Both the position numbers and the translations under genes were made by a program. Under the pieces are notes generated by a model, which was not told the origin of the DNA, did no database searches, and saw nothing but the letters and a program-made list of their open reading frames with translations. A DNA stretch of 64,000 nt, from the IMG/VR virus record IMGVR_UViG_3300015263_000944, positions 43,395-107,394 of that record, one strand, 5' to 3'. Positions within the stretch are counted from its first letter, which is position 1. Each line of letters begins with the position of its first letter. Positions 2,249-58,496 of the stretch are shown piece after piece. Source of the DNA: a virus.

Positions 2249-3541
2249 TTATGCGGCTTCTCCCCGTGACTCGCAGACGATCTTCTTCTCGCCTTTGACC
2301 ACAGACTCATCGATCACAATCTTCGCCGCTTTCGGGTTGGATGGCAAGTCGAAGTGAATGTCAGTCATCAGATCTTCCACCACACTCCGAAGAGCACGAG
2401 CCCCAGTGCCGAACTTGTGAGCCTTCTCGGCGATCATTCGCAGAGCACCATCTGTGAACTCCAGATCGAGCCCACTGTAGGCCAGCTTCTTTTCCTCTTG
2501 CTTGATGAGAGCGTTCTTCGGCTCGCTGAGCACCTGCACCAGATCGTCCACACTAAGTTCTTCGAGTGTGGCGATCACCGGCAGACGACCACACAATTCG
2601 GGGATCAGCCCGAACTCCATCAGATCGTGGTGGGTACATTGGGCCAGCAACTCGTTCTTCTCTTCGTTCTTCTCTTTGGTGGGTTGCTGTCCGAAGCCCA
2701 TCGCCCGGCGATTCATTCGCTTGCCGATGATGTCTTCCAGACCGTTGAATGCCCCACCGACGATGAAGAGGATGTTGGTGGTATCGATCTGGATGTATTG
2801 CTGCTCGGGGTGCTTTCTCCCACCCTGCGGAGGAACATTGGAGACGGTGCCTTCGATCATCTTCAGCAAGCTCTGTTGCACGCCTTCGCCACTCACGTCA
2901 CGAGTGATGCTGACGTTGCCACCAGTACGACCAATCTTGTCGATTTCGTCGATGTAGATGATTCCAGACTGGGCGGCGTCGATGTCGAAATCGGCAGCGA
3001 CGAGAAGTTTGAGGAGCAAATTTTCCACATCTTCGCCAACGTACCCAGCTTCGGTGAGGACGGTGGCATCACCGATGGCGAACGGAACTTGGAGCTTCTC
3101 GGCGAGGGAGCGGGCCAGCAGAGTCTTGCCGCTCCCTGTCGGGCCGATCAACACGATGTTCGACTTTTCGATTTCCACATCCTGCAACTCCTTACGCTTG
3201 ATGAGCGGAGTTGTATGGCCGTACCGCAACTCGCCGTCGATGAGACGCCGATAATGGTTGATGACCTGAACTGAGAGCTTCCGCTTCGCTGCATTCTGAC
3301 GGATCACATACTCGTCGAGATGCTCGTAAACATCTCGGGGCGAGGGGAGAGATTCCATCTGAGAGATGAGCGTAGGCTGACGAGACTTGCGTTCCTCTTG
3401 CTCGATGGCTTCATCGCAATTGGCGATGCAGTTCTTGCAAATGTACACACGGGCCTCATCGCCGTAGGCTTTGCCTTCGACAAGGGGGCCGACCTTGTTC
3501 TTGTCGCCCCCACAAAATCCACACTTGGGTCGTGTCTTCGC
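2249..3541 (-). CDS. clpX: ATP-dependent Clp protease ATP-binding subunit ClpX
   Basis: N-terminal C4 zinc finger (CGFCGG...CKNC). Walker A GPTGSGKT, and the typical ClpX sequence through the C-terminus. GAGGAGG lies 5 nt before the ATG at 3541; the longer ORF start at 3571 is less likely. Confidence 0.9.
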
Positions 3542-3601
3542 CATAAGTTCCTCCTCTGCTGGGCTTTTCATTGCCGTCTTCCCGTCAACATCATTATAGA
3601 G

Positions 3602-3607
3602 AGTTTC
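3602..3607 (-). promoter_or_regulatory. Possible -10 element (TATAAT on minus strand) upstream of clpX
   Basis: Perfect TATAAT about 60 nt upstream of the clpX ATG. No convincing -35 was found. Confidence 0.2.
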
Positions 3608-3674
3608 TCATCTACATTTTACGGCTAATCTGAGGCAGTGTAAAGCAATTCTCCGGTAGATGTTAGGGTGAAGT

Positions 3675-4493
3675 TTACCGTGGGTGGCGGTTATCCGTTT
3701 CCTGATCCAGCCTCTCAGAAAGTTCGTCGAATTCCTCTCTACTTTGTATTGACACCAATCGTCGCTGAATGTCGGAAATCATTCGAGCCGACGCCTCAAC
3801 ATCGTGGGGCGAGACTGCTGGCGGCTCATCGCCGGTCACTGTTCGGTATAGATCCTGAAGCTGACGATGCCCCTTGGCCGCTCGAATCTCTTGTTCCGCA
3901 GCCATTGCAATGAATGCTCCGATCACAACCAACATGAAGCGACCAGACATGATTCCCACAATAGCGAATCCAATACAGCCCACTTGACCAATTCGACCAG
4001 CGACAACTGTTGCCCGCTCATGATTCTTCCATATCATCGACAGAAGAGACCTCAACACTCTACCACCATCCATTGGAAAAATTGGCAATAGGTTGAAAAG
4101 CAGAATCGCAATGTTGATATAACAAAGCGTGGCAAGGACTGTGTGGACACTTGCCGAGAACCACAATGGGGCAATCAAGAGAGCGTTGACCAGCGGTCCA
4201 GCAAGAGCAACAACAAACTCTTGTACCGGCTCAACAGGCAGTCGCATTCGGGCCGCACCACCGAACGGATAGAGGGTGATGCTATGGGGCTCGATCCCAT
4301 ATCTTTGTGCCGCAATGCAGTGTCCAAATTCATGCAGCAGGACAATGAAGAAAGCCCCGGCATAAACGGCGGCGAGATTCCCGCCACCAGCAATCAACAC
4401 AAAAAGAAAAAGAAGTACCCAACTCCAATGCAGAGTTACGGGGACACGAAACCACCTACCCAGTGGAATGTTGAGATAGTTCAGAAATTTCAT
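3675..4493 (-). CDS. Site-2 protease family (peptidase M50) zinc metalloprotease
   Basis: HEFGH motif inside a TM helix. Multiple TM segments and a C-terminal soluble domain. Confidence 0.75.
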   Translation of the reverse strand: MKFLNYLNIPLGRWFRVPVTLHWSWVLLFLFVLIAGGGNLAAVYAGAFFIVLLHEFGHCIAAQRYGIEPHSITLYPFGGAARMRLPVEPVQEFVVALAGPLVNALLIAPLWFSASVHTVLATLCYINIAILLFNLLPIFPMDGGRVLRSLLSMIWKNHERATVVAGRIGQVGCIGFAIVGIMSGRFMLVVIGAFIAMAAEQEIRAAKGHRQLQDLYRTVTGDEPPAVSPHDVEASARMISDIQRRLVSIQSREEFDELSERLDQETDNRHPR

Positions 4494-5514
4494 TGGAATC
4501 CGTTCCTTTATTCAGGAGAACCCTCTTGGTCTCCAAATACTCTTTCCATCGATTCATAATGTACCGATGGTTGTGCTCAAATGTCGCTTGCACGTCGATC
4601 TGTCCTTCCTTGTGGACTTCGTTGATCGTCTTGTTCTGATAGTGGTACACCAGTGGGATGTACAAAGCGTAAATCTTATGGCCTGCTTCCATCAGGCGCA
4701 AGGACAAATCAGCATCCTCACAATATGCGAACTTCAATTGTTTGTTGAACAAACCGAATTCGGCATATGTGGTTTTCCGCTCAATGCAGAAACACCAGCC
4801 CGGAATATAATCAATTTCGGCTCCGTTGTCACCACCAAATCCCCGACCATCTGAGCTTAAATGCCCACCCCAAAAGCCTACCTGACGGTAATCTGGGTTG
4901 TTTTGCAAGAAGCCAAGCATAGCAGTATCCCAATGCTCAAAGACTTTGGTATCAGAATTCAGCAGGATGATATAATCTCCGGTGCCAACCTCGGCCAGCC
5001 TGTTGTTGGGTTCGATGAACCCCATATTGGCATCCATCGTCCAAACTTCTAAGCTCCAATCAGGGTTTTCAATGCTGAGGAATTCTGCTTGCAGCCTCTC
5101 AATGTATTGTTTTGTCTCTGGCCCGGAATCATTATCCCAGATGTAAAGTGTGTAGTTGTGCGTGTGTGCTCGGACAGATTCAATGCACTGCTTGAAGTAT
5201 TCTAACTGGTCACGAACAACGATGATGATGTCCTTCCATTTGTTCTCAGCCATCACTGCTGCTTTAAGTTCAGCCTCCATCTCCTTCTTCATCTCATCAA
5301 GTTGACCAGCACGGGAATGCTCTCTGGCCTGCCGCCAGATCTTGTTGCCGCATTCTTCGCTGCACACATGCTTCTGCAACTTCACATCAATCCAACGTGT
5401 GAAAGAACCACACTCAAAGCATTGGCCGAGTTTGGGATCACGAGTCACAAACGAGTATTCGAACTCGATTCGTTCGGTGGGCGCAGTGTCAGGGTATTTA
5501 ATCTCGAATTTCAT
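4456..5514 (-). CDS. Family 2 glycosyltransferase with N-terminal zinc ribbon
   Basis: CFECGSF...CSEECGN zinc ribbon followed by a GT-A domain with IWDNDSG and CEDADLSLR motifs. Start placed at MKFEIK (5514) to limit overlap with the upstream gene. Confidence 0.75.
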   Translation of the reverse strand: MKFEIKYPDTAPTERIEFEYSFVTRDPKLGQCFECGSFTRWIDVKLQKHVCSEECGNKIWRQAREHSRAGQLDEMKKEMEAELKAAVMAENKWKDIIIVVRDQLEYFKQCIESVRAHTHNYTLYIWDNDSGPETKQYIERLQAEFLSIENPDWSLEVWTMDANMGFIEPNNRLAEVGTGDYIILLNSDTKVFEHWDTAMLGFLQNNPDYRQVGFWGGHLSSDGRGFGGDNGAEIDYIPGWCFCIERKTTYAEFGLFNKQLKFAYCEDADLSLRLMEAGHKIYALYIPLVYHYQNKTINEVHKEGQIDVQATFEHNHRYIMNRWKEYLETKRVLLNKGTDSNEISELSQHSTG

Positions 5515-5872
5515 CAGAGCCTTTCGGGAGCACCAGCCAACTCTTATACCCCATCGTGAGGTAGATGGCCTGCTCTTCAAGAAGGGAGCACATTTCAGAC
5601 AGGAATTGAACGAAGGGCTTTACGTCGCCATGAAAACTGACTTCATAGCGGGCGTTTTGATCCTTGAAGATCGGATCTTCTGGGTGCCGACGCCAATACC
5701 CTTCGATGGCACTGGTTTCCAGCGTGTAGGCATCGAAGCTCGTCATCAAAAACTGCTCGAACAGTTCTCGTGGCGTCTTTCCATCCTTGCCGTGATCAAC
5801 CGAATCCAACTTTTGGACCGGGATATAAAACACAGCCACATGCCCGAGGTAAATAGCGTCAATCTCATCCAT
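5498..5872 (-). CDS. Hypothetical protein
   Basis: 124-aa ORF collinear with its neighbours. Confidence 0.45.
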   Translation of the reverse strand: MDEIDAIYLGHVAVFYIPVQKLDSVDHGKDGKTPRELFEQFLMTSFDAYTLETSAIEGYWRRHPEDPIFKDQNARYEVSFHGDVKPFVQFLSEMCSLLEEQAIYLTMGYKSWLVLPKGSDEIRD

Positions 5873-5886
5873 GAACTATCAGAGTA

Positions 5887-6750
5887 TCACTCGGAGGGAT
5901 TCTCTTCCTCTGCCCTCTCTGCTTGTTCTTGTTCTTTGGCGGCGTCTTCAGCTTCCGTGGTGCCCGTCGCCTTATCCATTTCGGCGATCACAGCACGCTC
6001 CTCCTTCACCTTCTTGAATTCCTCAAAAGGATCGAGGTTCGGGTCGGCTTCTTCTGCAAAGACTTGATCAAACGCTCCTGTGATGGCAGAGAAGCACGCC
6101 ATCACAACCGCCAGACCAGCGATCATAAATCCCATGACGATTACCCGCCCGGCTGCTGTCTGCGGGGAGAGATCACCATAACCAACCGTCGTAGCAGTAA
6201 CTTCCAAGAACCACGAAAGCGTGAAGAGGTTGCGAAATTCGGGTTGAGTCGGTCCCTCTACCTCATACAGAGCAAAGAGGGTGAACAACAGAATGATTCC
6301 CGTCATGAAAAGCAATGGTCGCAAATTGAACCATGCTCGATAGAAACCAAGGGCAACCAGTTGCAATGACCGGTTGTATCTGAAGAACTTCAACATGCGA
6401 AGCACACGCAATGTGCGAACCAAGTGAAGATAGGGCCGCAGTATCGGCAGGAACCCAATCCAGAAAGGCAAGATGGAGATCAAATCGATCATTCCAAATG
6501 CTGTGCGGGGATAAAACCCACGCCCAGAGTTCCGCCACCAGCGGAAGGCATATTCGACAGTGAAGATCAGAGCAACAATTCGCTCTGACCATAGAAAGAA
6601 GGGATGACTTCCTCTACTGTCGGTCTCTGGATACATGTGGCATTCAACAGCCAACATCGCCACGCTGTAAATCACCAATGGCTTGACAATCAGGTCGATC
6701 TTATCGATGACCCATTTCGTGGCATCCATTCGGTCAGTGCTGATCTCCAT
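5887..6750 (-). CDS. Voltage-gated potassium channel (6TM, Kv/KvAP-like)
   Basis: Six predicted TM helices. S4 segment LVRTLRVLRMLKFFR has basic residues at every third position. Pore helix plus the TVGYGD selectivity filter. Acidic cytoplasmic tail. RBS GGAAGAAGG lies before the ATG. Confidence 0.85.
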   Translation of the reverse strand: MEISTDRMDATKWVIDKIDLIVKPLVIYSVAMLAVECHMYPETDSRGSHPFFLWSERIVALIFTVEYAFRWWRNSGRGFYPRTAFGMIDLISILPFWIGFLPILRPYLHLVRTLRVLRMLKFFRYNRSLQLVALGFYRAWFNLRPLLFMTGIILLFTLFALYEVEGPTQPEFRNLFTLSWFLEVTATTVGYGDLSPQTAAGRVIVMGFMIAGLAVVMACFSAITGAFDQVFAEEADPNLDPFEEFKKVKEERAVIAEMDKATGTTEAEDAAKEQEQAERAEEENPSE

Positions 6751-6760
6751 AACCTTCTTC

Positions 6761-7021
6761 CTATTGGTTAAGCAAAGCCGCCCGCTGTATCATCGCTGTC
6801 GCCATGATCAAAACCCACATTGCCGATAACACCCAATTGGGCAACATAGCAGCTTGTGCATGATGCCATTCCGCTAAAGCGTAGAGCACTGCTGGAAACA
6901 CTGACAAGATCGCAACGGCAGCACAGGTCTGCGGCGATGGAGTGGCGGCTTTGACGAGAATTGCTACAAAACCGATGATCGCAGACAGGGATGCGAGAAA
7001 GTGTAACATTCGGGGTTCCAT
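6761..7021 (-). CDS. Small membrane protein
   Basis: Two or three hydrophobic helices. Start taken at MEPRML. Confidence 0.4.
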   Translation of the reverse strand: MEPRMLHFLASLSAIIGFVAILVKAATPSPQTCAAVAILSVFPAVLYALAEWHHAQAAMLPNWVLSAMWVLIMATAMIQRAALLNQ

Positions 7022-7059
7022 GACATTTCCTTCCTTGGAGTTCCCCACACGGTAGCGGA

Positions 7060-7926
7060 TCAAGCCGGATAGGTAAAGACGACTTCCTCCCCAAGTTCAG
7101 AATTGGGATCGTGGATATTCATGAAATCCGGGGCAGTACACAAATCAAAACCAGATAGGCCCATCGCCGCAAATGCCCTGTCCAATACTGGTTTTCGCTC
7201 TCGCAATTCGTCGGCCTGTAGCAAATGTTTCAGATGCAAACACATTCGGTGGTGATGATGTTCATAGGTGTTTCCGCCGTGGAACACATAGACATAATGA
7301 TGCCCTTCGTTCACGCCCACAACTGATCCACTCTGCATCAACTTCTGAAGAACATTGAGATCTTCTTCTCGATCACTTTGGTATCCAAACTCTGGATAGA
7401 GAAAACTTCGAAATTGATGGAAGCAGCTTTTTCGGAACATGACCGATCCGGTCAAAAAGCGTTTGTACGGTGATTGTTGAAGGATGTCCATGTAGCTCTC
7501 TGGGCCACGGGTATAATCTATCCAATACATTCTCCCTGTATTCTTGAAGTATTTCAGGTGTTGAGTGTAAAGGCTCGCCACGGCACGTCCACGAAGATGC
7601 TTGAACTGCGTCATCAGTCTGTCGGGATGATAAAAATCATCGTCATCCCACTGGCAAATGATGTCACCGGTAGTCAACTCAATGGAAACATTACGCATGG
7701 CACCCAGAGAAATGTTCGAGGGAGCTTCTATGAAGATCGCTCCTTTAATGGCACTCACCATCTGACGAATGGTTGCATTCCGCTCGGCTGTTCCTTGCGA
7801 AACCACCACGAGTTCTTTGTTCGCATAAGTTTGAGCCTCAAAACATCGAAGTGCGCCGCCAATCAGGTCATCCCGACCTGTGGTCACAGTAACGCAACTG
7901 ATTTTGGGTGGTCGTTCAAAGATCAT
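7060..7926 (-). CDS. Family 2 glycosyltransferase
   Basis: PKISCVTVT N-terminus and a QWDDDD DxD motif. Paralogous to the next gene. Confidence 0.8.
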   Translation of the reverse strand: MIFERPPKISCVTVTTGRDDLIGGALRCFEAQTYANKELVVVSQGTAERNATIRQMVSAIKGAIFIEAPSNISLGAMRNVSIELTTGDIICQWDDDDFYHPDRLMTQFKHLRGRAVASLYTQHLKYFKNTGRMYWIDYTRGPESYMDILQQSPYKRFLTGSVMFRKSCFHQFRSFLYPEFGYQSDREEDLNVLQKLMQSGSVVGVNEGHHYVYVFHGGNTYEHHHHRMCLHLKHLLQADELRERKPVLDRAFAAMGLSGFDLCTAPDFMNIHDPNSELGEEVVFTYPA

Positions 7927-8741
7927 GATTCCCTCTCATATAAGAATGCCAATCCCTCTCTGCCCATGACGGTGATCTTGTCTGCCAATTGCAGATGATC
8001 GAGCGTTCGACAGATGCGGTTGCGATGTTTGATCATGAAAGGAATGGTCATGCTACGATGCGTCGAAATGACTTGATGATGCTGGATGTCCCAGACGTTT
8101 TTTCCATGGAAGCTGTAGACATGCAAGTATCCCTTGTCTCTCAAAAGAATCACCTCAGTCTTTTCGCACAACTGATGAGCGAGCACAGAATCTTCACCGG
8201 CTGAGGCAAACGTGCCCGCTGAAGGATATCGAGCGGGGAAGCCTTCTTTGTACGCCATAATGGTGCCGGGTATCAATGAGAACTCTTGCACCTGACCGCT
8301 CAGGAAATGTTCCCAGTTCTCCCAATACAACTGTTGCGTTGGGAAGTAGTAATGCAGTTGATCGGTGAGATAGCAGACACGGGCGTTGGTGTGTTTGGAG
8401 AGATATGCGTACTGGGTCGCCAATCGCTCTGGCATGTTAAAGTCGTCATCATCCCATTGCACAAAGAGATCGCCATGACAAAGGGCGATGGAGATGTTGC
8501 GTAAAGCCCCGAGCGTGTATTTGCCGTCCAAGAAGATGAATCGCACATCTTCACGTTGCCCAACACACTCTCTGATTTGCTGTTGATACTGAAGAGACCC
8601 CTCATTGACGATCACCAATTCACGATTGGGATATGTCTGATTGAGGTAGCACTGGAAACTTCTGCGAAAGTATTCAATGCGCCCGTTGGCTGTGACCAGC
8701 AAGCAACTGATCTTCGGATATGGCCTATCGATGTGGAACAT
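7923..8741 (-). CDS. Family 2 glycosyltransferase (tandem paralog)
   Basis: PKISCLLVT and QWDDDD motifs. ATGA overlap with the downstream paralog. Confidence 0.8.
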   Translation of the reverse strand: MFHIDRPYPKISCLLVTANGRIEYFRRSFQCYLNQTYPNRELVIVNEGSLQYQQQIRECVGQREDVRFIFLDGKYTLGALRNISIALCHGDLFVQWDDDDFNMPERLATQYAYLSKHTNARVCYLTDQLHYYFPTQQLYWENWEHFLSGQVQEFSLIPGTIMAYKEGFPARYPSAGTFASAGEDSVLAHQLCEKTEVILLRDKGYLHVYSFHGKNVWDIQHHQVISTHRSMTIPFMIKHRNRICRTLDHLQLADKITVMGREGLAFLYERES

Positions 8742-8824: not shown

Positions 8825-9460
8825 TCAGTCTTCGAGTTCGGCTCCTTCGACGATGTAGTATCGCCGGTCGTCGCCACGGGCGACCTTCTTGGCCTTCTTG
8901 AAGTTGTAGAGGTGCTGCTGAATCTGGGGGCTGATGTTCTCGGAAGAGGATTCCCAGATCTTCTTGGCCTCGATGATCTCCTTGACTTCGGAGACCTTGA
9001 GACCCTCGGCGTCGGCGGGGAAGTCGGGCAGAATCTTCTCCCACGCTTCCGGCCCCATCTCCAGCACTTGCCAGATGGCAGCCTTCAGGGAGATTTCGTT
9101 GCCGTAGTTCCGGTCGGCGGGATCGACCTTGCCGCTGCGACGGACGTTCTTCCTGCCCTTGCCCTTGGCCGCTGGAGCATTCTTGCTCTTCGTCTTCTTC
9201 TTGGCCGGGGCGACGGCAGTGCTGGCAGCGGGGCGGGTGCGTGCCGTCTTCGGACGAGGTGCCGCAGGCGAAGCGACCGAGGAAGAGCCGTTCGAGCCAA
9301 CCTGATAATCGCCAGAATGCTGATTGGCGAGATCACGGATGGCGGCGAACTTCTCTTTGGCTGCGTTCAGCTTCTCCTGTCCCTCGTGTTCCAGTTGGTT
9401 TGCTTCGGCAAGGAGATCGCTGATCTGCTTGCCAACGTCGGTGGCTGTCGCCGTACTCAT
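8825..9460 (-). CDS. Lys/Ala-rich histone H1-like putative DNA-binding protein
   Basis: N-terminal coiled coil. Central KKKTKSKNAPAAKGKGRK low-complexity block. Structured C-terminal domain. The opposite-strand ORF 8720..9589 is its antisense. Confidence 0.55.
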   Translation of the reverse strand: MSTATATDVGKQISDLLAEANQLEHEGQEKLNAAKEKFAAIRDLANQHSGDYQVGSNGSSSVASPAAPRPKTARTRPAASTAVAPAKKKTKSKNAPAAKGKGRKNVRRSGKVDPADRNYGNEISLKAAIWQVLEMGPEAWEKILPDFPADAEGLKVSEVKEIIEAKKIWESSSENISPQIQQHLYNFKKAKKVARGDDRRYYIVEGAELED

Positions 9461-9660
9461 GGTTGGGGTTCTCCCTTGCAGCCGGTTTGTTCTGGGAAGC
9501 CTGTCTCATTGGCTGCGAAAGAGCAGGCACGCAACGTGTCCACAACACAAGTGTATCATCTGAGAAGGCGGGTTCAACCCCCTTTGTAAGAATTTTTCAG
9601 TTTGGATGGATACCTACTGTTATAAGTCGAACCCAAGGACGTAAACGAAGGGAGGCACAA

Positions 9661-9855
9661 ATGTTAGTCCTGTCTCGCAAACGTGATGAGAAGATCCTTC
9701 TCAAGACGCACGAAGGTCAAGAAATTGAATTGACAGTGGTACGAATCGACAACAACAAGGTACGTCTAGGCATCGAAGCCTCAGATCAGGTCACGATCCT
9801 CAGATCAGAACTGATCAACAAGGACATCCCAGAAGTTGCTGCCGTTTCGGCCTAA
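9661..9855 (+). CDS. csrA: Carbon storage regulator CsrA homolog
   Basis: MLVLSRKRDEKILL...VRLGIEASDQVTILRSEL aligns with CsrA (MLILTRRVGETLMI...VRIGVNAPKEVSVHREEI). GGAGG lies 6 nt before the ATG. Confidence 0.8.
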   Translation: MLVLSRKRDEKILLKTHEGQEIELTVVRIDNNKVRLGIEASDQVTILRSELINKDIPEVAAVSA

Positions 9856-10970
9856 CTCAACAATTCGCTGATGCTGCCGGTGCCATAATGGATTCTCATT
9901 ATGGCATCGGCAACCATCTGTGCCGTCGAGATTGTCACGACTTTCTTCTTATTCGCCTCACTCAGCCTCCAAGGGTCAACGGTGTCGCACATCACGATTC
10001 TCGTGTTGAGATCATCCATCTTCTGATTGGCGTCTCCGCAGAACAACCCATGTGTGGCGACCACAGCGAACAATTCCCCGCCAGCCGGTTCAACGGCCAT
10101 ACAGGCATTCCGCATGGTGCCACCAGTCGAGATCATGTCGTCCACGGCAATGACGTAGGCACCATCGACATCGCCGATGATGCGACCACCTTCATAGCCA
10201 GTCACGCCACTATTGGCCTCTTTTTTCTTTCGGGTTTTATCGTAGATGACGCATTCGATGGTATTCTTGGCAGGTTTGCCCAGTGCCTTCAGGCAATCGA
10301 CAAGGGCACCCCGGAAACGGCGAGCACGATGAAGACCTCCAGAATCGGGGGTGAGAACTGCAATTTTGTCTGCATCTTGCAGTTGCTTGGCACACCACTC
10401 CGCTTGGAGATTCTTGGCTTCGAGATTGTCAATGGGGCGGGAGAAAGCATTTTGCTCAGCAGCGAGATTGTGTACGTCAATGAACAGGGCTCTGTCCATG
10501 CCCACAGCTTCGAGCATCCGAGCGACGTATTTGGTGGTGATCGGCTCCCTTGAGGCTGTTTTGCGATCCTGTCTGGCCCATGCGAGATGGGGAATGACGA
10601 CCGTAACTTCGTGGGCACTGGCGTCTTTCAGCGATCCCACCATCCAGCACAACTTGACGAACTTGTCCGAAACTGATTCGTGGGCGTCCGAGTACAAACT
10701 TTGGATTACGAAGACATTGTGCCCTCGAACATTGCCAACCGCTCCATCGGCAGATTTGGCGAAGTTCTCGCCATCTGGGAAGTCTAGCTCCTCATGTGGG
10801 GTCAAGTCAATACCCACATGTTCGGCAACTTTCTGAGCGTACCCCTGAGAACTGTTCAGGCCGAAGATCTTGAATGGTCTGGGTGCCCGAGAAATCTTCA
10901 GCAAAGCAGCCGAAACTGCCTGTTGTACCATGGCTTCCGCTTCTTCTACGGTGACGAATCTGCTGGACAT
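9852..10970 (-). CDS. prs: Ribose-phosphate pyrophosphokinase (PRPP synthetase)
   Basis: Prs-type sequence throughout, including the PRPP-binding VDDMISTGGT motif. About 30-aa N-terminal extension. Confidence 0.85.
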   Translation of the reverse strand: MSSRFVTVEEAEAMVQQAVSAALLKISRAPRPFKIFGLNSSQGYAQKVAEHVGIDLTPHEELDFPDGENFAKSADGAVGNVRGHNVFVIQSLYSDAHESVSDKFVKLCWMVGSLKDASAHEVTVVIPHLAWARQDRKTASREPITTKYVARMLEAVGMDRALFIDVHNLAAEQNAFSRPIDNLEAKNLQAEWCAKQLQDADKIAVLTPDSGGLHRARRFRGALVDCLKALGKPAKNTIECVIYDKTRKKKEANSGVTGYEGGRIIGDVDGAYVIAVDDMISTGGTMRNACMAVEPAGGELFAVVATHGLFCGDANQKMDDLNTRIVMCDTVDPWRLSEANKKKVVTISTAQMVADAIMRIHYGTGSISELLS

Positions 10971-11003
10971 TCGAACTCCTTTCGGGATGATCGGGCATCA
11001 GAA

Positions 11004-11882
11004 TTATATGGCATTTTTCGACAACAGTTGAGCTTTTAGCGTGTTTCGCATCAGCATCGCCACCGTCATTGGGCCTACGCCACCGGGAACCGGGGTGATG
11101 GCGGACACCTTCTGTGAGACAGCATCGAAGTCTACATCGCCTACGATCTTTCGAGTGCCGGGAATGCGGTTGATCCCCACGTCAACCACCACGGCACCTT
11201 CCGGCACCATGTCAGCAGTGAGGAAATTGGGCTGGCCGACTGCGACCACGATGATGTCTGAAGAAAGACAGACTTCTTTGAGACGATCTGGGGGCGTGTG
11301 ATCGTGACACATGAAGACCGTGGCATTCGCTTGCCCATGGTCTTGAACGAGAAGTGCAGACAGAGGCTTCCCGACAATATCAGATCGATTGATGATCGCC
11401 ACTTTCTTCCCCGCAATTCCAATGCCGCTACGGGTCAGTAACTCCTGAATACCCTGTGGCGTGCAGGGAACAAATCGAGGACGACCTTGTAGGAGCAGTC
11501 CAACATTCGTAGGCGAAAAGACATCAACGTCTTTGTGAGGGTCGATTCTATCGAAAACCGCTTGTGCGTCAAGACACTTTGGCAACGGCAGTTGAACCAA
11601 GACCCCATGCACAGCCGGATCGTTGTTGAGATAATCGATGGTTGCCAGAAGATGGTCCATTGGCTGGGACCAATTCTCAATGCCTCCTTCGAACGGCTTC
11701 AACAGAAAACTGATGATGCCGCACTCCTCACATGCCTGTCTCTTCTTTGAGACATAAATCTCACTTGCTGGATCTTCAGAGCACAACACCACAGCGAGAC
11801 ATGGTGGCGTCATTCCAATTTTTGCTTTGATCTCTGCACGCACTTCGGCGGCGACAGCGTTCCCGTCAAGAAGTTGGGCCAT
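11004..11882 (-). CDS. folD: Bifunctional methylenetetrahydrofolate dehydrogenase/cyclohydrolase FolD
   Basis: MAQLLDGNAVAAEVRAEIK N-terminus, GKKVAIINRSDIVGKPLSALL and PGGVGPMT motifs. Confidence 0.85.
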   Translation of the reverse strand: MAQLLDGNAVAAEVRAEIKAKIGMTPPCLAVVLCSEDPASEIYVSKKRQACEECGIISFLLKPFEGGIENWSQPMDHLLATIDYLNNDPAVHGVLVQLPLPKCLDAQAVFDRIDPHKDVDVFSPTNVGLLLQGRPRFVPCTPQGIQELLTRSGIGIAGKKVAIINRSDIVGKPLSALLVQDHGQANATVFMCHDHTPPDRLKEVCLSSDIIVVAVGQPNFLTADMVPEGAVVVDVGINRIPGTRKIVGDVDFDAVSQKVSAITPVPGGVGPMTVAMLMRNTLKAQLLSKNAI

Positions 11883-12414
11883 CGATCTCCCTCTCAATCA
11901 GTTCCATCATGGAATCGAAGTGATCGACACAGACGTAATGCAGATCGCCATGCAGGTGTCTGCTAAGATGTCCCTTCAGGAAATTGTCGAAGCTCACAGC
12001 CTCGTCGTAATCCTGATAGCGACCCTTTTCGTTGTACTCGACCGTGCGTTCAATGAAGAGATTGAGAGGTGGAAAGTCTCGGTCGAACTGCTGACAGATG
12101 CGAATCAGATCGTCGGCACATTGAAAATCGTAGAGTGCCGAGTAAGCAGTATTCATCAGCAACGGAGAGTCCGTCACGATGGTTTGCACGTTTCTCAGAA
12201 TGACATCTTCTGACTTCAATTGCTTGGCGAAGACGTACAACTGGTCGTATGAGGTCGGTTTGCGGCCCTCATGTGCCCAAGTTTTTATGTATTCGGGAAT
12301 ATGTTCTACGTCGTATCCCCGAATCTTCAATTCGGCGAACGTGCGAGCGGCCAAGGTGCTCTTCCCGCTACCCGGCCCAGCATAGAAATTCACTCTTCTA
12401 ATTGGTGAGGACAT
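11866..12414 (-). CDS. P-loop NTPase / nucleotide kinase-like protein
   Basis: Walker A GPGSGKST near the N-terminus; 182 aa. Confidence 0.6.
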   Translation of the reverse strand: MSSPIRRVNFYAGPGSGKSTLAARTFAELKIRGYDVEHIPEYIKTWAHEGRKPTSYDQLYVFAKQLKSEDVILRNVQTIVTDSPLLMNTAYSALYDFQCADDLIRICQQFDRDFPPLNLFIERTVEYNEKGRYQDYDEAVSFDNFLKGHLSRHLHGDLHYVCVDHFDSMMELIEREIDGPTS

Positions 12415-13351: not shown

Positions 13352-13618
13352 ATGACCGGCAGCTATTCAGATCAGTTGTTGGAACAGCGTAATAACGAGC
13401 GTCGAGCCACCCGTCCGTGGCTGGAATGCTACATCTGCCAAACACCGCCCACATTTGAGGACGTGAAGGCCCACTTCGCTGAACAGGGGATGCTCGTCAC
13501 ACGGGCGGACTACCAAGCGGTGTGCGAGAAGATGTGCGTGAAGCCACGCTGGGCGCACGAAAAAACCCCGGAGCAACCGAAGTCACTCCGGGGTGAGTCC
13601 GAGGGGACCGACGTTTAG
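13352..13618 (+). CDS. Hypothetical small protein
   Basis: GAGAGGAG RBS 4 nt before the ATG at 13352; 89 aa. Its 3' end contains a hairpin that works as a minus-strand terminator, which lowers confidence. Confidence 0.35.
   Translation: MTGSYSDQLLEQRNNERRATRPWLECYICQTPPTFEDVKAHFAEQGMLVTRADYQAVCEKMCVKPRWAHEKTPEQPKSLRGESEGTDV
13558..13593 (-). terminator. Rho-independent terminator for the ParB-like gene
   Basis: Hairpin CCCCGGAG/CTCCGGGG followed on the minus strand by TTTTTTCG. Confidence 0.5.
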
Positions 13619-15132
13619 TCCTCGTCATCGTACCCCATCCGATCCAACTCAGCGACCGGATTGTAGTCCTCGTCGTCGTCGTCATCGAAGTCGTCCCCGA
13701 ACTCTTCATCGAGTTCGGCGTCGAGTTCGGCGTCGGTTTCGAATTCCTCTTCGTCTTCAACATCAACAGCATCCCATCGGCCCAGATCGATCTGGATCGA
13801 GCGGATGATGTCGAGTCCGGGGCTGTGACGCCCTTCGAGGATCGCCGTGCAGGTTCGCCGCACAGCCATCACCAGATCAGCAGGAATGTTTTCGCCGTAA
13901 TCTGGGTCTTCGGTCTCGCCATCCTCCAGAGCCGCCAGAGAATCGATGATCTCTTGAATCTGCTCCTTCGGCATCATCTTCGCCTTCTTCGGCGACAGAT
14001 TGGCAGCGGCAGCCCCACGAGCGACGTGGCTCTGCTTGATCGTGCCCTTCTCGTCTTCGACACGATCCTTCTTCTCCTTCGCCTTCTTCTGTCGAGTCTG
14101 GGCAGACCGGACAGTGCGACGAGCCTTCTTGGCAGTTGTCTCGTCATCGTTCTGCTCAGCCTTCTTGGCCTCGGCGAGAGCAAGCTCCTCCTCGTCTTCG
14201 GCCTGCTCCAGTTCGTCCTGCGCCTCTTCCAAGCGACGGGCAGTATCTTCCTCTTCGGCCTTCTTCGTCGCCTCGAAAAGTTTCTGACGATCTTCGGGCT
14301 TGAAGCCCATGATGTGGACGGCAACGTGACGGGTCATGGTGCCGTCGAGCAGTTTCTTGTAGGCTTCCTTCGGCAACGCCTCTTGGAAGTTGAGTGTCTG
14401 GGAAACCCACGTCTCATTGGTTCCCAACATGTCGGCGATCTCGCCCTGCTTCATTCCCATCCGCTGGAGACGCTCGACGAGGGCGATCTCTTCTCGGGTT
14501 TCCAACGACTGGCTCTTGTCGTTCTCCGTGAACGCCAAACGCAAGGCACGCTCATCGGTGCAGTCGTAGGCCACCCGGCACGGAATCTGATGGTAGAGCT
14601 TGCTGCCGGGAATGGTGGGAAAGACTTCCTCGGCGGCGACATCACGCTGTTCTTCGCCCAGCGTGAGTCCATCGGCGAGAAAGAACTGGATCGCAAGGCT
14701 GGCCGTCTTGTGAGATACGACCTTGGCGAAGCGACCTTTGTGCAGCACGACGGCCCCGGCACGATACTTCTTCGGGGCTTCAGCGTCTTCGTCGAAACAC
14801 GGGTAATCGTTCTCGACGATCTTCAGGAGGGTTCGCAGCCGCCGCTCACCAGCAATCAACTGGACAGCGACAACCTTCCCCTTCTCAGTCAGGGCACGGA
14901 CTTGCGGGGGTTGCTGCAAGCCGTCCGTCCGAATCGAGAGCAACAACTCTTGCATCTCCGCAGGCGTGAAGCTCTCGATGCTGCGGGGGTTGTAGAAAAG
15001 TTGCTCAGTCTCTCGGCCCTTGGCGGGCCGCTCCACAATCTCAATCTGATCAAGAGGGACGGAAGGATATTTCCCCTCGCCCGTGATCTTGATGGACTTG
15101 GACTTGGTGGTTGTTGTCATTGCGGTTTGCAT
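13615..15132 (-). CDS. ParB-like nuclease domain protein with acidic C-terminal tail
   Basis: ParB N-terminal box LIAGERRLRT. Long charged coiled-coil region. Poly-D/E C-terminus. Confidence 0.8.
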   Translation of the reverse strand: MQTAMTTTTKSKSIKITGEGKYPSVPLDQIEIVERPAKGRETEQLFYNPRSIESFTPAEMQELLLSIRTDGLQQPPQVRALTEKGKVVAVQLIAGERRLRTLLKIVENDYPCFDEDAEAPKKYRAGAVVLHKGRFAKVVSHKTASLAIQFFLADGLTLGEEQRDVAAEEVFPTIPGSKLYHQIPCRVAYDCTDERALRLAFTENDKSQSLETREEIALVERLQRMGMKQGEIADMLGTNETWVSQTLNFQEALPKEAYKKLLDGTMTRHVAVHIMGFKPEDRQKLFEATKKAEEEDTARRLEEAQDELEQAEDEEELALAEAKKAEQNDDETTAKKARRTVRSAQTRQKKAKEKKDRVEDEKGTIKQSHVARGAAAANLSPKKAKMMPKEQIQEIIDSLAALEDGETEDPDYGENIPADLVMAVRRTCTAILEGRHSPGLDIIRSIQIDLGRWDAVDVEDEEEFETDAELDAELDEEFGDDFDDDDDEDYNPVAELDRMGYDDED

Positions 15133-15982: not shown

Positions 15983-16675
15983 TCAGTTAAAGCTTTCCGC
16001 ATCAAGTACAAATTTTGTGTCACAATCGTTGCAAGTGACGTTGAGCGGCTTCTGTCCATCAGGACGCCGACCAGACCGGATGATCACCGGAGGTTCGCAC
16101 GACTGACAGACATACTTCAATTGGTACTCTTTGTGCGGCTTCGACTCGTAGGACCGTCGCAACGCCCGCTGGAAGTTCTGGAACTCCTGTTGCGACCACG
16201 AAATCTCTCGATAGATTTTTCGACGCAACTTCACCGCAGACGTTTCGGGGAACCTCACCTTGTCCGCCTGAACCACCTCGCTGTGATTGGCGTCGGAGAA
16301 AGTGATCCCCCAGCCTCGTGCCGAACTAGCAACAACAATGAGACCGAGACGGAGTGCCTTCTCACAGAAGTATCGGTTGTGATACTGATTCTGCGTAAAG
16401 TCCGGGACGCCCTGCTTGGCATGATAGACGTGAATCATCACATGCAGCAGATCATCCAGCACCTCTGTCTTCGATGCGTTGATGAAGCTTGCCCCGATCT
16501 CTATCGTGTCGTCTCCCGTATAATGGAAGATGCCTTTGCGGCTCAAGTTGGGCGTAAACTCGATCTCATCATTCAGTTCACCGTTAAAGAGGCCCTTGTT
16601 CAGAGTTTCAAATGCTCTGGTCAAATGACCTTTCATGCAGTCACCTTTTCTGTCATCCGTGGGTGTGGACTCCAT
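15983..16675 (-). CDS. Hypothetical protein with C-terminal zinc ribbon
   Basis: C-terminal CQSC...CNDC pair. No HExxH motif, so a SprT-like call is not supported. Confidence 0.45.
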   Translation of the reverse strand: MESTPTDDRKGDCMKGHLTRAFETLNKGLFNGELNDEIEFTPNLSRKGIFHYTGDDTIEIGASFINASKTEVLDDLLHVMIHVYHAKQGVPDFTQNQYHNRYFCEKALRLGLIVVASSARGWGITFSDANHSEVVQADKVRFPETSAVKLRRKIYREISWSQQEFQNFQRALRRSYESKPHKEYQLKYVCQSCEPPVIIRSGRRPDGQKPLNVTCNDCDTKFVLDAESFN

Positions 16676-17196
16676 GCCTTTTCAGGCAGTAGGACGCTCT
16701 CCAACGAAAGCTCCCTGAATTTGTTCGAGGCTCCTCGCAGACTGGGAGAGCACTGGTTGGGGTCGAAGACTACCTCAACCTCCACGCCCTTTCGACGAAT
16801 CTCTTGGGCCACCTGTGCCATCTCATATGCTCCGGTCAGAACCACGAAGGAATCGTAGTATCCCTGCTGGAGCAACTGGGACATGTCCCAAGTGATCTGG
16901 CAGGTTATCGCAGAATTGATTTCGTCATCCAGTTCCGGGTGGCCCGCTCGGCTCACTGGATTCCGCATGATCCTGACATCGAAACCAGCCAGTCGCATCG
17001 AATCATAAAGCCGATGTCTTGAGTCTAAATTGCGGTTGGTCTCTCCGCAATAGAAAATCGACACCACTGCCTCTCGATCACCAGCCAACCAATTCTTGAG
17101 CAGCTTGAAGTTGACCTTGCGGCCATTCAAGATTCGAGAGAGAGCGTTGTTGTCTACGAAGACGCAGATCTTTTCTGATCGCTGGCCTTCACCCAT
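16633..17196 (-). CDS. NYN/LabA-like ribonuclease domain protein
   Basis: ICVFVDNNAL start, then FVVLTGAYEMA and VEVVF, consistent with the NYN fold. RBS AAAGGGAGG. Confidence 0.7.
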   Translation of the reverse strand: MGEGQRSEKICVFVDNNALSRILNGRKVNFKLLKNWLAGDREAVVSIFYCGETNRNLDSRHRLYDSMRLAGFDVRIMRNPVSRAGHPELDDEINSAITCQITWDMSQLLQQGYYDSFVVLTGAYEMAQVAQEIRRKGVEVEVVFDPNQCSPSLRGASNKFRELSLESVLLPEKAWSPHPRMTEKVTA

Positions 17197-29789: not shown

Positions 29790-30633
29790 CCTGATACCGG
29801 GCCAGCACGTCAGTCGAATCCAAATCAAGACCTTCGCCAAAATAGGTGTGCAGCGGCGCACGTTGATGAGCGAAAGCATAATGACTGACGACCATGCCGC
29901 CGAAGATGGCGTTCTGCTTGCCGATCCGCTGGGGCTTGGTGCGGATCAACCAATCCTCCTCCTTGACGTATTCATCGCCCTCTTTCGCCACTTCGCCGTT
30001 GAACTTGGCGAATTCCGAGCCAAACCAACTGATGCAGTTGATCGACGCCATGTGGCCGATGGCTGGCTCTGGCAGCTTCAGAGACGAGAGATCAGGGTAG
30101 GCGTCGAAAAAGACGTTGTGAAGATGGAGACCGATTTGGCCCCCATGCGGCCTCCACTCCTTCTCTTCGTCATAGCCGCTTTGACAAAAGGGATGAGAAC
30201 GAGGAAAGATGCGAAAGTCCATGCAGTTGTTGACGATGACAGGGAAGACCAAGAAGAACTCTGGGTGCTCTCTGCGAAACTGAATGTAACTCTCGAAGGC
30301 ATCCACCTCGATGAAACACACATCGTCATCGATGCGAACGTAGATGGCATCGTCGTCGATGCAGTTTTGAAAGAATGGGGCGATCATGTGCCCCACATGA
30401 TGCACAGACGGGGTGCCTGTGGTCTCGAAGACACCTTCGACTTCAGACTGATAGATCAATTTGAAGTGCGGACTCAGGGAATGAATATGGTGGATGAACT
30501 CCAAATCGTCCGGGTTCTTCGTGTTGACCCAGAGATGGTGTTCATCCACCACATCCTTCAGTTTGAGAATGTAAGGAAGCTGAACCTCTAAGAACCGCTT
30601 CCGTCCGCAGACAGTGACTAGAATCGTTCTCAT
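29776..30633 (-). CDS. Hypothetical protein (DDD motif, possible glycosyltransferase)
   Basis: Start set at MRTILVTVCG (30633), giving ATGA coupling with the radical-SAM gene stop. VRIDDDVCF block. Confidence 0.45.
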   Translation of the reverse strand: MRTILVTVCGRKRFLEVQLPYILKLKDVVDEHHLWVNTKNPDDLEFIHHIHSLSPHFKLIYQSEVEGVFETTGTPSVHHVGHMIAPFFQNCIDDDAIYVRIDDDVCFIEVDAFESYIQFRREHPEFFLVFPVIVNNCMDFRIFPRSHPFCQSGYDEEKEWRPHGGQIGLHLHNVFFDAYPDLSSLKLPEPAIGHMASINCISWFGSEFAKFNGEVAKEGDEYVKEEDWLIRTKPQRIGKQNAIFGGMVVSHYAFAHQRAPLHTYFGEGLDLDSTDVLARYQAIAG

Positions 30634-32144
30634 TGACGTGGGGCGGCAACCAGTTCGAGTTCGACCTCTTCCTTCTTGGCACGACTTTCTTTGGTGAGCT
30701 TGTAGAGTTGCCGAATCTCTTGCGGCAAGACATACCGAGTTGACATACAACCCATGTCGTGGTTGCCGTCATACCCCTTCTCTGCGAACTGGTTGTTGGC
30801 TTTACAGCCACCCATGCACATCGGCAGAACATGGCACTCGTAGCACTCGGCATCGTTCATGGGATTGAACTCGTACTTGTCCAGTCCCTTCGATCCCTTC
30901 GTGGCGAATTCCAGATTTGTGATATGGCCGATGGCATGACTGTCATCGGTCGAGTGGTGCCAGCATTTGATGATCGCACCACTCGGGTTGACGACGAACT
31001 GAAAGTTCTTGTTAGCTGTGCAGGTGTCCCCGGTGAACCGCAGATTGCGTCGATACGCTTCCGCACTTCGCTCCTGTGACCACCGGTTCAAGCTCAACTC
31101 AAAGCGAGCGTGTTCTTCTTTGGTCATCTGGGAGCTACATGCCCCACCACAGCCATCGAAAATGGCGTTGGTGTAGACTCGCACGATGCCCCCGTCCTCA
31201 GACTTCTCCATCCACCCTCGCTCGTGAGCCAGTTCATACAAGGCTTCGACACGATCCTTGTTGATTTTGCTGACGTTGATCCGCAGGGCGACCTGAAGGC
31301 CAGCATCGTAACAGTGGCCGACGTTGCGAATGATGTCCTCAAAAGACGACTTCGGAGATTCTGGGGCCTGCCCGATGATCGGAAGCGATCCAAAATTTGG
31401 ATCGATCTTTTGTCGCTGAGCAATCTGATGCTCGTGCATGTCCTCGATTTTCATCTGGGAAAGATAGGGCCGCAGGGCGTCGTGGTCTTCTTTGATGCCA
31501 TCGACGGTGATTTGCAAACCCTTGATCTTGCACGCTTTCAGACGGTTGATTACATGCGGCGTGAGGGTGGTGCCATTCGTGATGATGAACGGCTCCCACG
31601 GCACGCCGAGCTTCGAGCACAACATGTCGATGTAAGCCGACAGCCGTTCGATGCAACGCATGTTGAGGGTTGGCTCGCCGCCAAACCAAGTAACGCCGAA
31701 ACTCTTCGTGGGCGTAGCTGTAAGGTACTCGTCGAGAAACCTCTCAACCTGTTCTTGCACCTCTTCTGTCATCATCCGCCATTCGGTTTTCTTCTCATAG
31801 CAGTAGGTGCAGCCGAGGTTGCAACGATCTGTGGTCACGATGGTCAGAGCTTTGGCGATGGGAGAATTGACGTTTTCGTCCCAAAATCTGCCAATCGTCT
31901 CCCGCTCATCGAAACCAGCCGGTTTGAGGAATCCGCCGTTCTTCAGGGTCTCCACAAAAGTTGGAGTCGCCAACGAAAAATCGCCGTCCGACAGACGGCG
32001 ATACACCTCTGCCTTTTCGTCACTCAGAAGAAGGAGCGTGCCCTTCATCTGACTATGTAGCAACCAACCATCGTCACACTCAACCAAGGTGTTGTAGCGT
32101 GAGACTTCGTGTGTAGGTCGGCTGCGCCAGAACCAATTGAACAT
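30630..32144 (-). CDS. Radical SAM / SPASM domain enzyme with roughly 100-aa N-terminal extension (possible RRE)
   Basis: CNLGCTYC (CxxxCxxC) at about residue 108, GGEPTLN motif, and a C-terminal Cys-rich SPASM region CYECHVLPMCMGGC. GGAGGAG RBS. Confidence 0.85.
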   Translation of the reverse strand: MFNWFWRSRPTHEVSRYNTLVECDDGWLLHSQMKGTLLLLSDEKAEVYRRLSDGDFSLATPTFVETLKNGGFLKPAGFDERETIGRFWDENVNSPIAKALTIVTTDRCNLGCTYCYEKKTEWRMMTEEVQEQVERFLDEYLTATPTKSFGVTWFGGEPTLNMRCIERLSAYIDMLCSKLGVPWEPFIITNGTTLTPHVINRLKACKIKGLQITVDGIKEDHDALRPYLSQMKIEDMHEHQIAQRQKIDPNFGSLPIIGQAPESPKSSFEDIIRNVGHCYDAGLQVALRINVSKINKDRVEALYELAHERGWMEKSEDGGIVRVYTNAIFDGCGGACSSQMTKEEHARFELSLNRWSQERSAEAYRRNLRFTGDTCTANKNFQFVVNPSGAIIKCWHHSTDDSHAIGHITNLEFATKGSKGLDKYEFNPMNDAECYECHVLPMCMGGCKANNQFAEKGYDGNHDMGCMSTRYVLPQEIRQLYKLTKESRAKKEEVELELVAAPRQ

Positions 32145-53592: not shown

Positions 53593-53663
53593 GTACCCCC
53601 TAGAGGAGTCGAACCTCTTCTAAAACTTTAGGAAAGTCTTGTGCTTCCGTCACACTCAGGGGG
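53593..53663 (-). tRNA. tRNA-Arg (anticodon CCU)
   Basis: Manual cloverleaf fold. Acceptor GCCCCCT/AGGGGGT. D arm GTGT-GACGGAA-GCAC. Anticodon stem AGACT/AGTTT with loop TTCCTAA. T arm AGAGG-TTCGACT-CCTCT. Discriminator A. 71 nt without CCA. Confidence 0.65.
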
Positions 53664-53712
53664 CTCGGAATGTTGCATTGTAACATATCTAGCCGAAACA
53701 CTAAATATCTCT

Positions 53713-57929: not shown

Positions 57930-58496
57930 CTACTGACTCCAACCGAAGTCTTCTGTGGTTTCGACCCCAGCACGAATGTCTTCTCGAACCTTCGTGCAAA
58001 CTTCTCCAAGCCAGTTGGTCCCATCCCACAAAGCTCGATTGTGGACTCCGGGGTGATGTTCCTTCAGACCGATTCCCCAGATTCGGTCCCACGGGCTGGC
58101 TTCGACCAATGTGCCTTCCAATGAAAGCAGGGCGTCCTTGAGGCCGGGGTTCTGAGTGAACTTCGCATAGTTCCCCCGGTAAACGATGTCCCGTGCAACG
58201 GCATTCCATGTGTCTGCATCAAAATTGCGAACCATGCGACCCAAAGCTTTTTGGTCTCTGGGGTTGTCCGCCTTCATGATCTGCTGAGCAGCATCTTCGT
58301 CTCCGAAGAGACGTGCCTTTTCGGCCATCATGTATTGTTCAGTGCAATTGTAGGTCACGCCGTCTACTTCAAAACGGCATGGCAACCACTGAGAACAAAT
58401 ACCAGCGATGTTGTCGCCTGTAACAGCAACAATCACATCGTCTTGATTGTGAACCAACTCAACATGTCCACCAAAAAATGGCGTAAACTTTTCCAT
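57930..58496 (-). CDS. NADAR (YbiA-like) domain protein
   Basis: MEKFTPFFGGH, SQW, EQYMMAEKARLF, GNYAKFTQN and EASPWDRIWGIG blocks. AGGAGG RBS 4 nt before the ATG at 58496. Confidence 0.7.
   Translation of the reverse strand: MEKFTPFFGGHVELVHNQDDVIVAVTGDNIAGICSQWLPCRFEVDGVTYNCTEQYMMAEKARLFGDEDAAQQIMKADNPRDQKALGRMVRNFDADTWNAVARDIVYRGNYAKFTQNPGLKDALLSLEGTLVEASPWDRIWGIGLKEHHPGVHNRALWDGTNWLGEVCTKVREDIRAGVETTEDFGWSQ

Follow-up and report, generated by a model that had tools for sequence, protein, structure and literature searches.

CsrA proteins are among the main post-transcriptional regulators of bacteria. A 64,000-nucleotide (nt) stretch of the IMG/VR virus record IMGVR_UViG_3300015263_000944 (positions 43,395 to 107,394), referred to here as the window, carries at positions 9661 to 9855 of its plus strand what is, on balance, probably a functional gene that encodes an RNA-binding protein of the CsrA family, residing in the genome of a huge bacteriophage. 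All positions below are coordinates of this window. The reading of the predicted 64-amino-acid (aa) product (MLVLSRKRDEKILLKTHEGQEIELTVVRIDNNKVRLGIEASDQVTILRSELINKDIPEVAAVSA) as a CsrA family member draws on matches in Pfam, PHROGs, and the PDB, on a Foldseek structure comparison, and on the ratio of nonsynonymous to synonymous substitution rates (dN/dS). No second csrA copy was found in the 64-kb window.

Membership in the CsrA family

The relationship to CsrA, proposed in a preliminary description of this DNA, is borne out by the Pfam CsrA hidden Markov model (PF02599), which matched the protein with 63.8 bits (E = 1.4e-17), well above its gathering threshold of 27, and covered positions 1 to 50 of the 53 in the profile. 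In PHROGs, the protein matched phrog_9500, “CsrA-like regulator” (E = 4.4e-9), and sequence searches aligned it residue by residue with the CsrA chains of PDB entries 1Y00, 2BTI, 1T3O, and 5DMB, with E values down to 4e-4. The length of 64 aa fits the small, single-domain CsrA proteins (∼55 to 80 residues); the relatives of the window protein have 56 to 77 aa.

The CsrA fold consists of five β-strands followed by a C-terminal α-helix and forms a strand-swapped homodimer. The AlphaFold2 model of the monomer (predicted local distance difference test score, 73.7) contains only strands at residues 10 to 15, 21 to 30, and 33 to 39 and a short helix; such a mediocre monomer model is to be expected because CsrA is a strand-swapped dimer. 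In a Foldseek search of the PDB with this model, the top 11 matches were all CsrA, RsmA, or RsmE proteins, with template modeling scores of 0.5 to 0.66 and E values of at least 0.06, and the best of them was 5dmb_D, with 41% identity.

Gene boundaries and ribosome-binding site

The open reading frame (ORF) opens with the ATG at 9661 and closes with the TAA at 9853 to 9855, giving 64 codons on the plus strand. The ORF recognized in the preliminary description is real, but the interval given there, 9461 to 9855, is too long for it: positions 9461 to 9660 are a 200-nt intergenic region that csrA shares with a divergent gene for a 211-aa protein. A mechanically called 130-aa ORF starting from the TTG at 9463 was rejected, as MLVLSRK is the protein start in every relative.

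The Shine-Dalgarno (SD) sequence AGGGAGG (9649 to 9655, plus strand) lies in a block, GAAGGGAGGCA, that is nearly invariant among the relatives despite the saturation of synonymous sites. The ribosome-binding site (RBS) reported earlier is thus in place, with GGGAGG at 9650 to 9655, 5 nt before the ATG. The SD sequence also holds, as AGGGA (9649 to 9653), the core of the A(N)GGA motif that is recognized by CsrA proteins (PMC4005645).

Two further claims of the preliminary description, a plus-strand gene inside a minus-strand block and its convergence with prs, agree with the gene map. The csrA gene is flanked by the minus-strand gene for the 211-aa protein and by prs, the ribose-phosphate pyrophosphokinase gene (9852 to 10970, minus strand; Pfam domains Pribosyltran_N, Pribosyl_synth, and Pribosyltran), and the csrA and prs ORFs overlap by 4 nt (9852 to 9855), stop over stop.

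A constrained subfamily of prs-linked CsrAs

Among 40 homologs with 66 to 88% identity, 29 alignment columns are invariant, including that of Leu2. In the related loci, dN is ∼0.1 to 0.2, dS is saturated, and the median dN/dS is ∼0.1; csrA is under strong purifying selection. In a neighbor-joining tree, the 36 distinct CsrAs encoded in linkage with prs are all found inside one clade of 42 tips. The equivalents of Leu4, Arg6, Lys/Arg7, and Arg44 are kept in all 36 of these proteins. The window protein carries Leu2, Leu4, Arg6, and Lys7 in the first β-strand (β1), as well as Arg48, the equivalent of Arg44, a residue that is essential for RNA binding (PMC7366521) and whose RNA contacts have been described (PMC4005645).

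Other positions set the prs-linked proteins apart. The equivalent of Pro37 is lost in 36 of 36, being replaced by Ser, Asp, Gly, Asn, or Glu, compared with Pro in 78 of 79 homologs from GTDB genomes, and that of His43 is always Leu or Val, compared with His in 68 of the 79. Nearly all prs-linked proteins also have an insertion of 3 to 5 residues after β1, which makes this segment 8 to 10 residues long instead of 5. In the window protein, Pro37 is replaced by Ser and His43 by Leu, and in place of the canonical Ala-Pro turn (36-37) and Val-His-Arg (42-44) there are Ala-Ser and Ile-Leu-Arg. With these two changes and the insertion, the specificity of the prs-linked proteins may differ from the GGA paradigm.

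Two sets of homologs illustrate the variation in this loop. A cellular CsrA from a “Candidatus Peribacteria” metagenome-assembled genome (JAHFJM010000004.1, positions 6001 to 6207; locus L011) has the same insertion after β1 but retains both Pro37 and His43, so this insertion does not occur in phages only. A 77-aa prs-linked CsrA with 48% identity to the window protein, found on IMG/VR and JGI contigs of 104 to 246 kb (loci L093 and L141 to L143), carries at this loop an insertion of 14 residues (ELENDDSCDIE...); in these loci, the csrA stop is ∼150 nt from prs and does not overlap it.

The probable phage carrier and its likely host

That this csrA is phage-encoded is well but indirectly supported: its surroundings are syntenic with those in a deposited 595-kb phage record and in IMG/VR viral contigs. 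The record, LR756511.1 (“uncultured phage”), encodes a CsrA that in a protein search was 67% identical to the window protein, and its gene order is that of the window: genes for an M50 protease and a small basic protein come before csrA, the plus-strand gene, which is followed on the minus strand by prs, folD, and the genes for a kinase, a Zn-ribbon protein, and a ParB-like protein; ClpX is encoded just upstream. An identical CsrA protein is found in two independent data sets, a 100.7-kb contig of JGI 3300022562 (Ga0247387_10000286) and the SRA assembly SRR14699976; a contig of 238.9 kb is also recorded as carrying it, and close homologs in the same module occur on metagenomic contigs of 219, 282, and 686 kb. 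The convergence of csrA with prs is also seen on IMG/VR viral contigs of 177, 245, 390, and 459 kb. Altogether, the convergent pair was present in 45 of the 186 fetched loci, down to 48% identity of CsrA and 41% identity of Prs, whereas all 80 loci taken from cellular (GTDB) genomes lacked it. The place of csrA as the lone opposite-strand gene between the gene for the 211-aa protein and prs is likewise conserved down to 48% CsrA identity. Strong matches in PHROGs were obtained for the ClpX-like neighbor (phrog_4339, 5.7e-92), a helicase (phrog_1967, 4e-58), and a nucleotidyltransferase (7.5e-43).

The phage assignment is weakened by the lack of virion genes: none of the 30 window ORFs scanned against Pfam and PHROGs matched a capsid, portal, terminase, or other virion protein. 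The contig could then be part of a bacterial chromosome, a megaplasmid, or another large element, with csrA as an ordinary cellular paralog. Many genes of the window are cell-like (those for ClpX, Prs, FolD, ParB, a UvrD-type helicase, and glycosyltransferases and a tRNA gene), and the viral labels of LR756511.1 and IMG/VR are themselves computational. Nevertheless, a cellular origin appears very unlikely, given that the gene order equals that of the deposited 595-kb phage genome and of several IMG/VR contigs and that the csrA/prs arrangement is missing from the GTDB loci. Also, many window ORFs had no match in any library, which is typical of phages, and huge phages, phage G and the Lak phages among them, usually carry clpX, prs-type, and tRNA genes. 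A megablast search for DNA nearly identical to positions 1 to 25000 of the window was negative in all 50,697 phage records compared. On the basis of synteny and database labels, and not of hallmark genes, the carrier is very likely a huge (>200-kb) phage of a widespread environmental clade.

The closest cellular CsrAs are at most 59% identical to the window protein. The overwhelming majority belong to Planctomycetota (Pirellulaceae, Planctomycetaceae, and Isosphaeraceae), and a few to bacteria of candidate phyla. In the chromosomal CsrA of Anatilimnocola and in the CsrA of Peribacteria, which is encoded next to gyrB and greA (and holA), the first 11 to 13 residues are the same as in the phage protein. 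The closest cellular relatives are chromosomal CsrA paralogs of Planctomycetota, such as that of Anatilimnocola sp. NA78, with 45 to 59% identity; unlike the window protein, they keep Pro37 and, mostly, His43, lack the insertion, and are never encoded beside prs. CsrA is reportedly prevalent in Planctomycetota, and some bacterial genomes encode up to 15 copies (PMC13443453). Given this prevalence and the predominance of Planctomycetota among the nearest cellular CsrAs, a planctomycete host can be reasonably inferred for this phage.

Conserved cis elements around csrA

With synonymous sites saturated, conservation of noncoding sequence in these loci is informative. A scan for σ70 promoters and intrinsic terminators on both strands of the 9300 to 10300 region found nothing, so the promoter and terminator assignments given here are by conservation only.

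An 18-nt box, GGATACCTACTGTTATAA (GGATACCTACTCTTATAT in the relatives), is located at 9608 to 9625 on the plus strand and is a candidate promoter or operator of csrA. It is nearly invariant in an alignment of 26 loci and ends in a −10-like TATAAG/TATAT; there is no canonical −35 element in it. The box is unique in the window and occurs once per related locus, always 28 to 52 nt before csrA and on the same strand, which rules it out as a general phage promoter. An exact scan of IMG/VR returned 116 scattered single matches, none of them beside csrA, which we judge, by estimate, to be due to chance.

The second element, a candidate translational operator and autoregulatory CsrA site, is a hairpin in the leader and the 5′ end of the coding region (9636 to 9671, plus strand). 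In this hairpin, AGGAC (9636 to 9640) and UAA (9642 to 9644) pair with UUA (9664 to 9666) and GUCCU (9667 to 9671) in codons 2 to 4, and the loop (9645 to 9663) holds the SD sequence with its AGGGA and the AUG. The pairing is accompanied by covariation: upstream GGAC is found with the Val3 codon GUC in 15 loci and GCAC with GUG in 5 loci, with no mixed cases, and in loci L091 and L092, upstream UAG is paired with CUA as the Leu2 codon. The native duplex has an energy of −6.14 kcal/mol, compared with −4.42 kcal/mol for permuted partners (0 of 5,000 permutations).

The third element is a hairpin at 9870 to 9918 on the plus strand, with the core GCCGGTGCCATAATG/CATTATGGCATCGGC at 9877 to 9913. 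It begins 15 nt past the csrA stop codon, within the final prs codons, and is a candidate 3′-end or terminator structure of the csrA transcript. RNAalifold gave only 5 pairs in this region; the full hairpin was set by hand and then tested. In its register, 75.8% of the alignment cells are paired, compared with 28 to 44% in slid registers, and 8 pairs change on both sides, with a covariation score of 0.198 versus 0.118 for shuffled alignments (0 of 500). In several relatives, the stem is followed by a T-run, CCATTTTTG.

This hairpin might instead belong to prs, as an mRNA-stability, ribosome-pausing, or RNase site or as a by-product of the C-terminal peptide A-D-A-I-x-R-I-H-x-G-T-G-S. Indeed, it lies wholly within conserved prs coding sequence, where its outer stem corresponds to the conserved Ala-Asp-Ala and Gly-Thr-Gly codons, and it has no U-tract in the window; both features also weigh against a csrA terminator. 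Such an origin seems somewhat unlikely, however, because residues of Prs change together (Ile-Met/His-Tyr versus Val/His) in such a way that the stem stays paired, and the pairing is specific to its register. The strand preference points the same way: at one position, the most frequent pair reads G-U on the strand of csrA but would be C-A on that of prs, and the plus-strand fold is the more stable one in 21 of the 29 loci.

A sigma-70-like promoter for the divergent gene of the 211-aa protein is predicted at 9550 to 9578 on the minus strand. It consists of a −35 element GTTGAA (9578 to 9573), a 17-nt spacer, and a −10 element TACACT (9555 to 9550); the two blocks are conserved in relatives as CTTGTm and TAnACT, respectively. 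With a score of 8 out of 12, one below the scan threshold, this promoter can only be inferred to drive the gene.

Proposed function and its alternatives

The likely function of the phage protein, judged by its family and by the conserved elements around its gene, is GGA-directed repression of translation that includes autoregulation. The protein would form dimers like other CsrAs, and these dimers would bind GGA motifs in the loops of hairpins at ribosome-binding sites, blocking translation. One target would be the csrA mRNA itself, whose leader hairpin would display AGGGA and AUG in its loop, resulting in negative autoregulation as in E. coli csrA; autoregulation is the natural reading here, since a GGA in a hairpin loop at the SD sequence is the classical CsrA site. 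The csrA transcript is predicted to begin at the conserved upstream box and to end at the covarying hairpin inside the 3′ end of prs, spanning ∼9630 to ∼9918. Because there is no terminator between the converging genes, csrA and the prs-folD operon would probably interfere transcriptionally or form antisense pairs.

Several observations weigh against this interpretation, in addition to the lack of virion genes and the position of the 3′ hairpin discussed above. The NCBIfam CsrA equivalog models TIGR00202 and NF002469 matched the protein below their cutoffs (47.7 versus 70.1 bits and 45.1 versus 73 bits, respectively), so on sequence grounds it is a member of the CsrA family but not an equivalog of canonical CsrA; these low scores are consistent with the insertion and the changes at Pro37 and His43, in which the protein differs from nearly all cellular homologs. 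The leader hairpin is no more stable than shuffled sequence (z = −0.3), and its covariation amounts to ∼2 independent compensatory events among related sequences. Finally, SD sequences containing GGA are common in the window, so that a specific regulon cannot be read from the sequence.

The preliminary description suggested a different role, in which a viral CsrA would titrate or mimic the host control of carbon metabolism, biofilm, or motility. This suggestion is speculation. In its wider form, the protein would act mainly on host mRNAs or on CsrA antagonists, such as sponge small RNAs (sRNAs) or FliW-like proteins, and would reprogram carbon metabolism, motility, biofilm formation, or defense. 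In its favor, the N-terminal RNA-binding strand, MLVLSRKRDE, is identical in the closest cellular homologs, which are CsrAs of Planctomycetota, a phylum with prevalent, multicopy csrA (PMC13443453). The plasmid-borne RsmQ takes over the translational control of its host (PMC9928087), and CRISPR-Cas expression is reportedly under the control of the Rsm pathway (PMC8450108). On the other hand, the identity to any cellular CsrA does not exceed 59%, the fixed changes at Pro37 and His43 and the insertion argue against simple mimicry, and the short variable C-terminal tail is unlike that of FliW-binding CsrAs. The search for a CsrB/RsmZ-type sponge RNA, in 64 kb of a much larger genome, found no Rfam family except tRNA at the gathering threshold. 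Action on the host is possible but doubtful. Nothing in the analysis favors host over phage targets.

The GGA-densest 150-nt stretch of the window (58000 to 58149, minus strand) was considered as a sponge RNA and rejected, being protein-coding; other dense stretches were not inspected individually. The gene at this place (57930 to 58634, minus strand) has a product (MEKFTPFFGG...WDRIWGIGL) that by eye only resembles NADAR/YbiA-type (DUF1768) proteins.

Alternatively, CsrA could serve as a timer inside the phage program, regulating chiefly phage genes and notably prs-folD through GGA-loop hairpins at ribosome-binding sites and through the antisense overlap. The convergent overlap of csrA and prs is strictly conserved over deep divergence, with no terminator between the two genes, and the prs RBS (10972 to 10984, minus strand) can form the hairpin CGAA-AGGAG-UUCG with the GGA in its loop, directly before the AUG. 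Similar forms (GAAA-AGGA-UUUC-like) are found in the nearest relatives. This stem, however, has only 4 bp and is not conserved in more distant loci, and the start sites of prs in the relatives were assigned crudely; the GGA-containing SD sequences common in the window lower its weight further, and synteny alone does not show regulation. A chiefly phage-internal role is therefore regarded as unlikely.

A still bolder proposal would treat the prs-linked CsrAs as a phage-specific subfamily with its own specificity, forming a self-contained translational switch that is autoregulated, terminated inside prs, and coupled to prs-folD by antisense pairing and GGA-loop ribosome-binding sites, rather than a mimic of host CsrA. 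If so, the altered RNA-binding face would separate the phage CsrA from the many CsrA paralogs of the host, and the switch would be tied to the nucleotide-supply operon prs-folD. As a whole, this proposal appears quite unlikely to hold.

Neighboring genes

The 211-aa protein encoded divergently from csrA (8825 to 9460, minus strand) is Lys/Ala/Pro-rich and had no match in Pfam, PHROGs, or NCBIfam. It has a coiled-coil-like N terminus, a Lys/Ala/Pro-rich, histone-H1-like middle part, and a C terminus resembling winged-helix/HARE-HTH domains. Most related loci encode a homolog in the same place upstream of csrA; in LR756511.1, this position is taken by two small basic ORFs that the homology search did not pick up as homologs.

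Past prs, the minus-strand order continues with folD, an AAA kinase-like gene, and the ParB-like gene. The mechanical folD ORF (11004 to 11897, minus strand) opens at a TTG; in the JGI call, the gene starts five codons later, at an ATG (292 aa, MAQLL...). There is also an overlap between the stop region of folD and the start of the gene that follows (11866 to 12414), which suggests tight operon packing. The ParB-like protein has 505 aa (13615 to 15132, minus strand).

The region upstream of csrA (2249 to 8741, minus strand) is a conserved module, also seen in loci L004, L006, and L008, that encodes a ClpX-like ATPase with a zinc finger, an M50 site-2 protease, and three to four family-2 glycosyltransferases. 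An Ion_trans ion-channel gene (5887 to 6750) is part of this module in the window only. Farther away, the minus strand encodes an NYN-domain nuclease (16633 to 17196), a 504-aa radical-SAM enzyme (30630 to 32144), and a UvrD-type helicase (62602 to 63993; phrog_1967, 4e-58). The sole Rfam/ARAGORN match in the window is a tRNA-Arg(CCT) gene (53593 to 53664, minus strand), which overlaps the GTG start of a 1152-aa Laminin_G_3 (concanavalin-like) protein (53641 to 57099, plus strand); given this overlap, the annotated GTG start is probably wrong.

Comparison with known CsrA systems

Canonical CsrA, RsmA, and RsmE proteins, such as E. coli CsrA (1Y00) and the RNA-bound RsmE of P. fluorescens (2JPP), belong to the same Pfam family as the window protein and have the same size and single-domain layout. 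They share with it the equivalents of Leu2, Leu4, Arg6, Arg/Lys7, Gly33, Ala36, Val40, and Arg44, and the A(N)GGA motif is found in known targets of canonical CsrA as well as in the SD sequence of the window csrA. The window protein differs from them in its overall identity (∼30 to 35%), the 4-residue insertion after β1, and a short variable C terminus.

The FliW-antagonized CsrAs of B. subtilis and Geobacillus (PDB 5DMB) have the same N-terminal MLVLSRK motif. FliW-binding CsrAs, however, carry a long C-terminal extension, whereas the window protein has only ∼12 variable residues after the helix. There is also no fliW or flagellar gene context in the window, where the neighbors are prs, folD, and glycosyltransferase genes.

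CsrA-family genes have been described on phages before. Of 2,517 phage genomes surveyed, 30 had such a gene, mostly of the RsmM type known from P. aeruginosa phages (Sobrero and Valverde 2020, PMC7366521), and a knockdown of the csrA homolog of phage PTXU04 (gp28), reported in 2025, resulted in smaller plaques (PMC11879866), so that this homolog contributes to phage fitness. In view of these two reports, the novelty implied for a phage CsrA in the preliminary description is overstated; with phage csrA genes and a fitness phenotype already published, no new category is opened here. The RsmM-type and PTXU04 proteins share phrog_9500 with the window protein. The nearest homolog from a cultured phage, a 123-aa protein of Pseudomonas phage vB_PaeS-D14H, is only 45% identical to it. 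The known csrA phages have genomes of ∼40 to 60 kb, and many of them are temperate, in contrast to the huge phage described here, which likely infects another host phylum; nor have a fixed convergent pairing with prs and cis elements been described for them. A literature search on CsrA in huge or jumbo phages, or on LR756511, found nothing relevant. What the present analysis adds is the huge-phage clade, a probable link to planctomycetes, the sequence signature of the subfamily, and a gene arrangement that is conserved together with its cis elements. The likely host phylum, Planctomycetota, combines many csrA paralogs with almost no phage genetics. Two concrete RNAs are now at hand for binding tests, the hairpin of the csrA leader and the RBS of prs.

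Other mobile elements, too, carry their own copy of a global translational regulator, namely, RsmQ of plasmid pQBR103 (PMC9928087) and CsrT of Legionella integrative and conjugative elements (cited in PMC7366521). Their carriers are conjugative elements of Gammaproteobacteria with cognate Gac/Rsm sRNAs, whereas the csrA described here is carried by a huge phage of the lytic type, and the window showed no sRNA partner. RsmQ demonstrably rewires host translation (PMC9928087), which illustrates that a mobile element with its own CsrA copy can take over this process. In the present case, csrA has been retained under strong constraint, in one fixed place and with cis elements of its own, throughout a clade of huge phages from the environment whose contigs reach 686 kb; the gene therefore matters to these phages.

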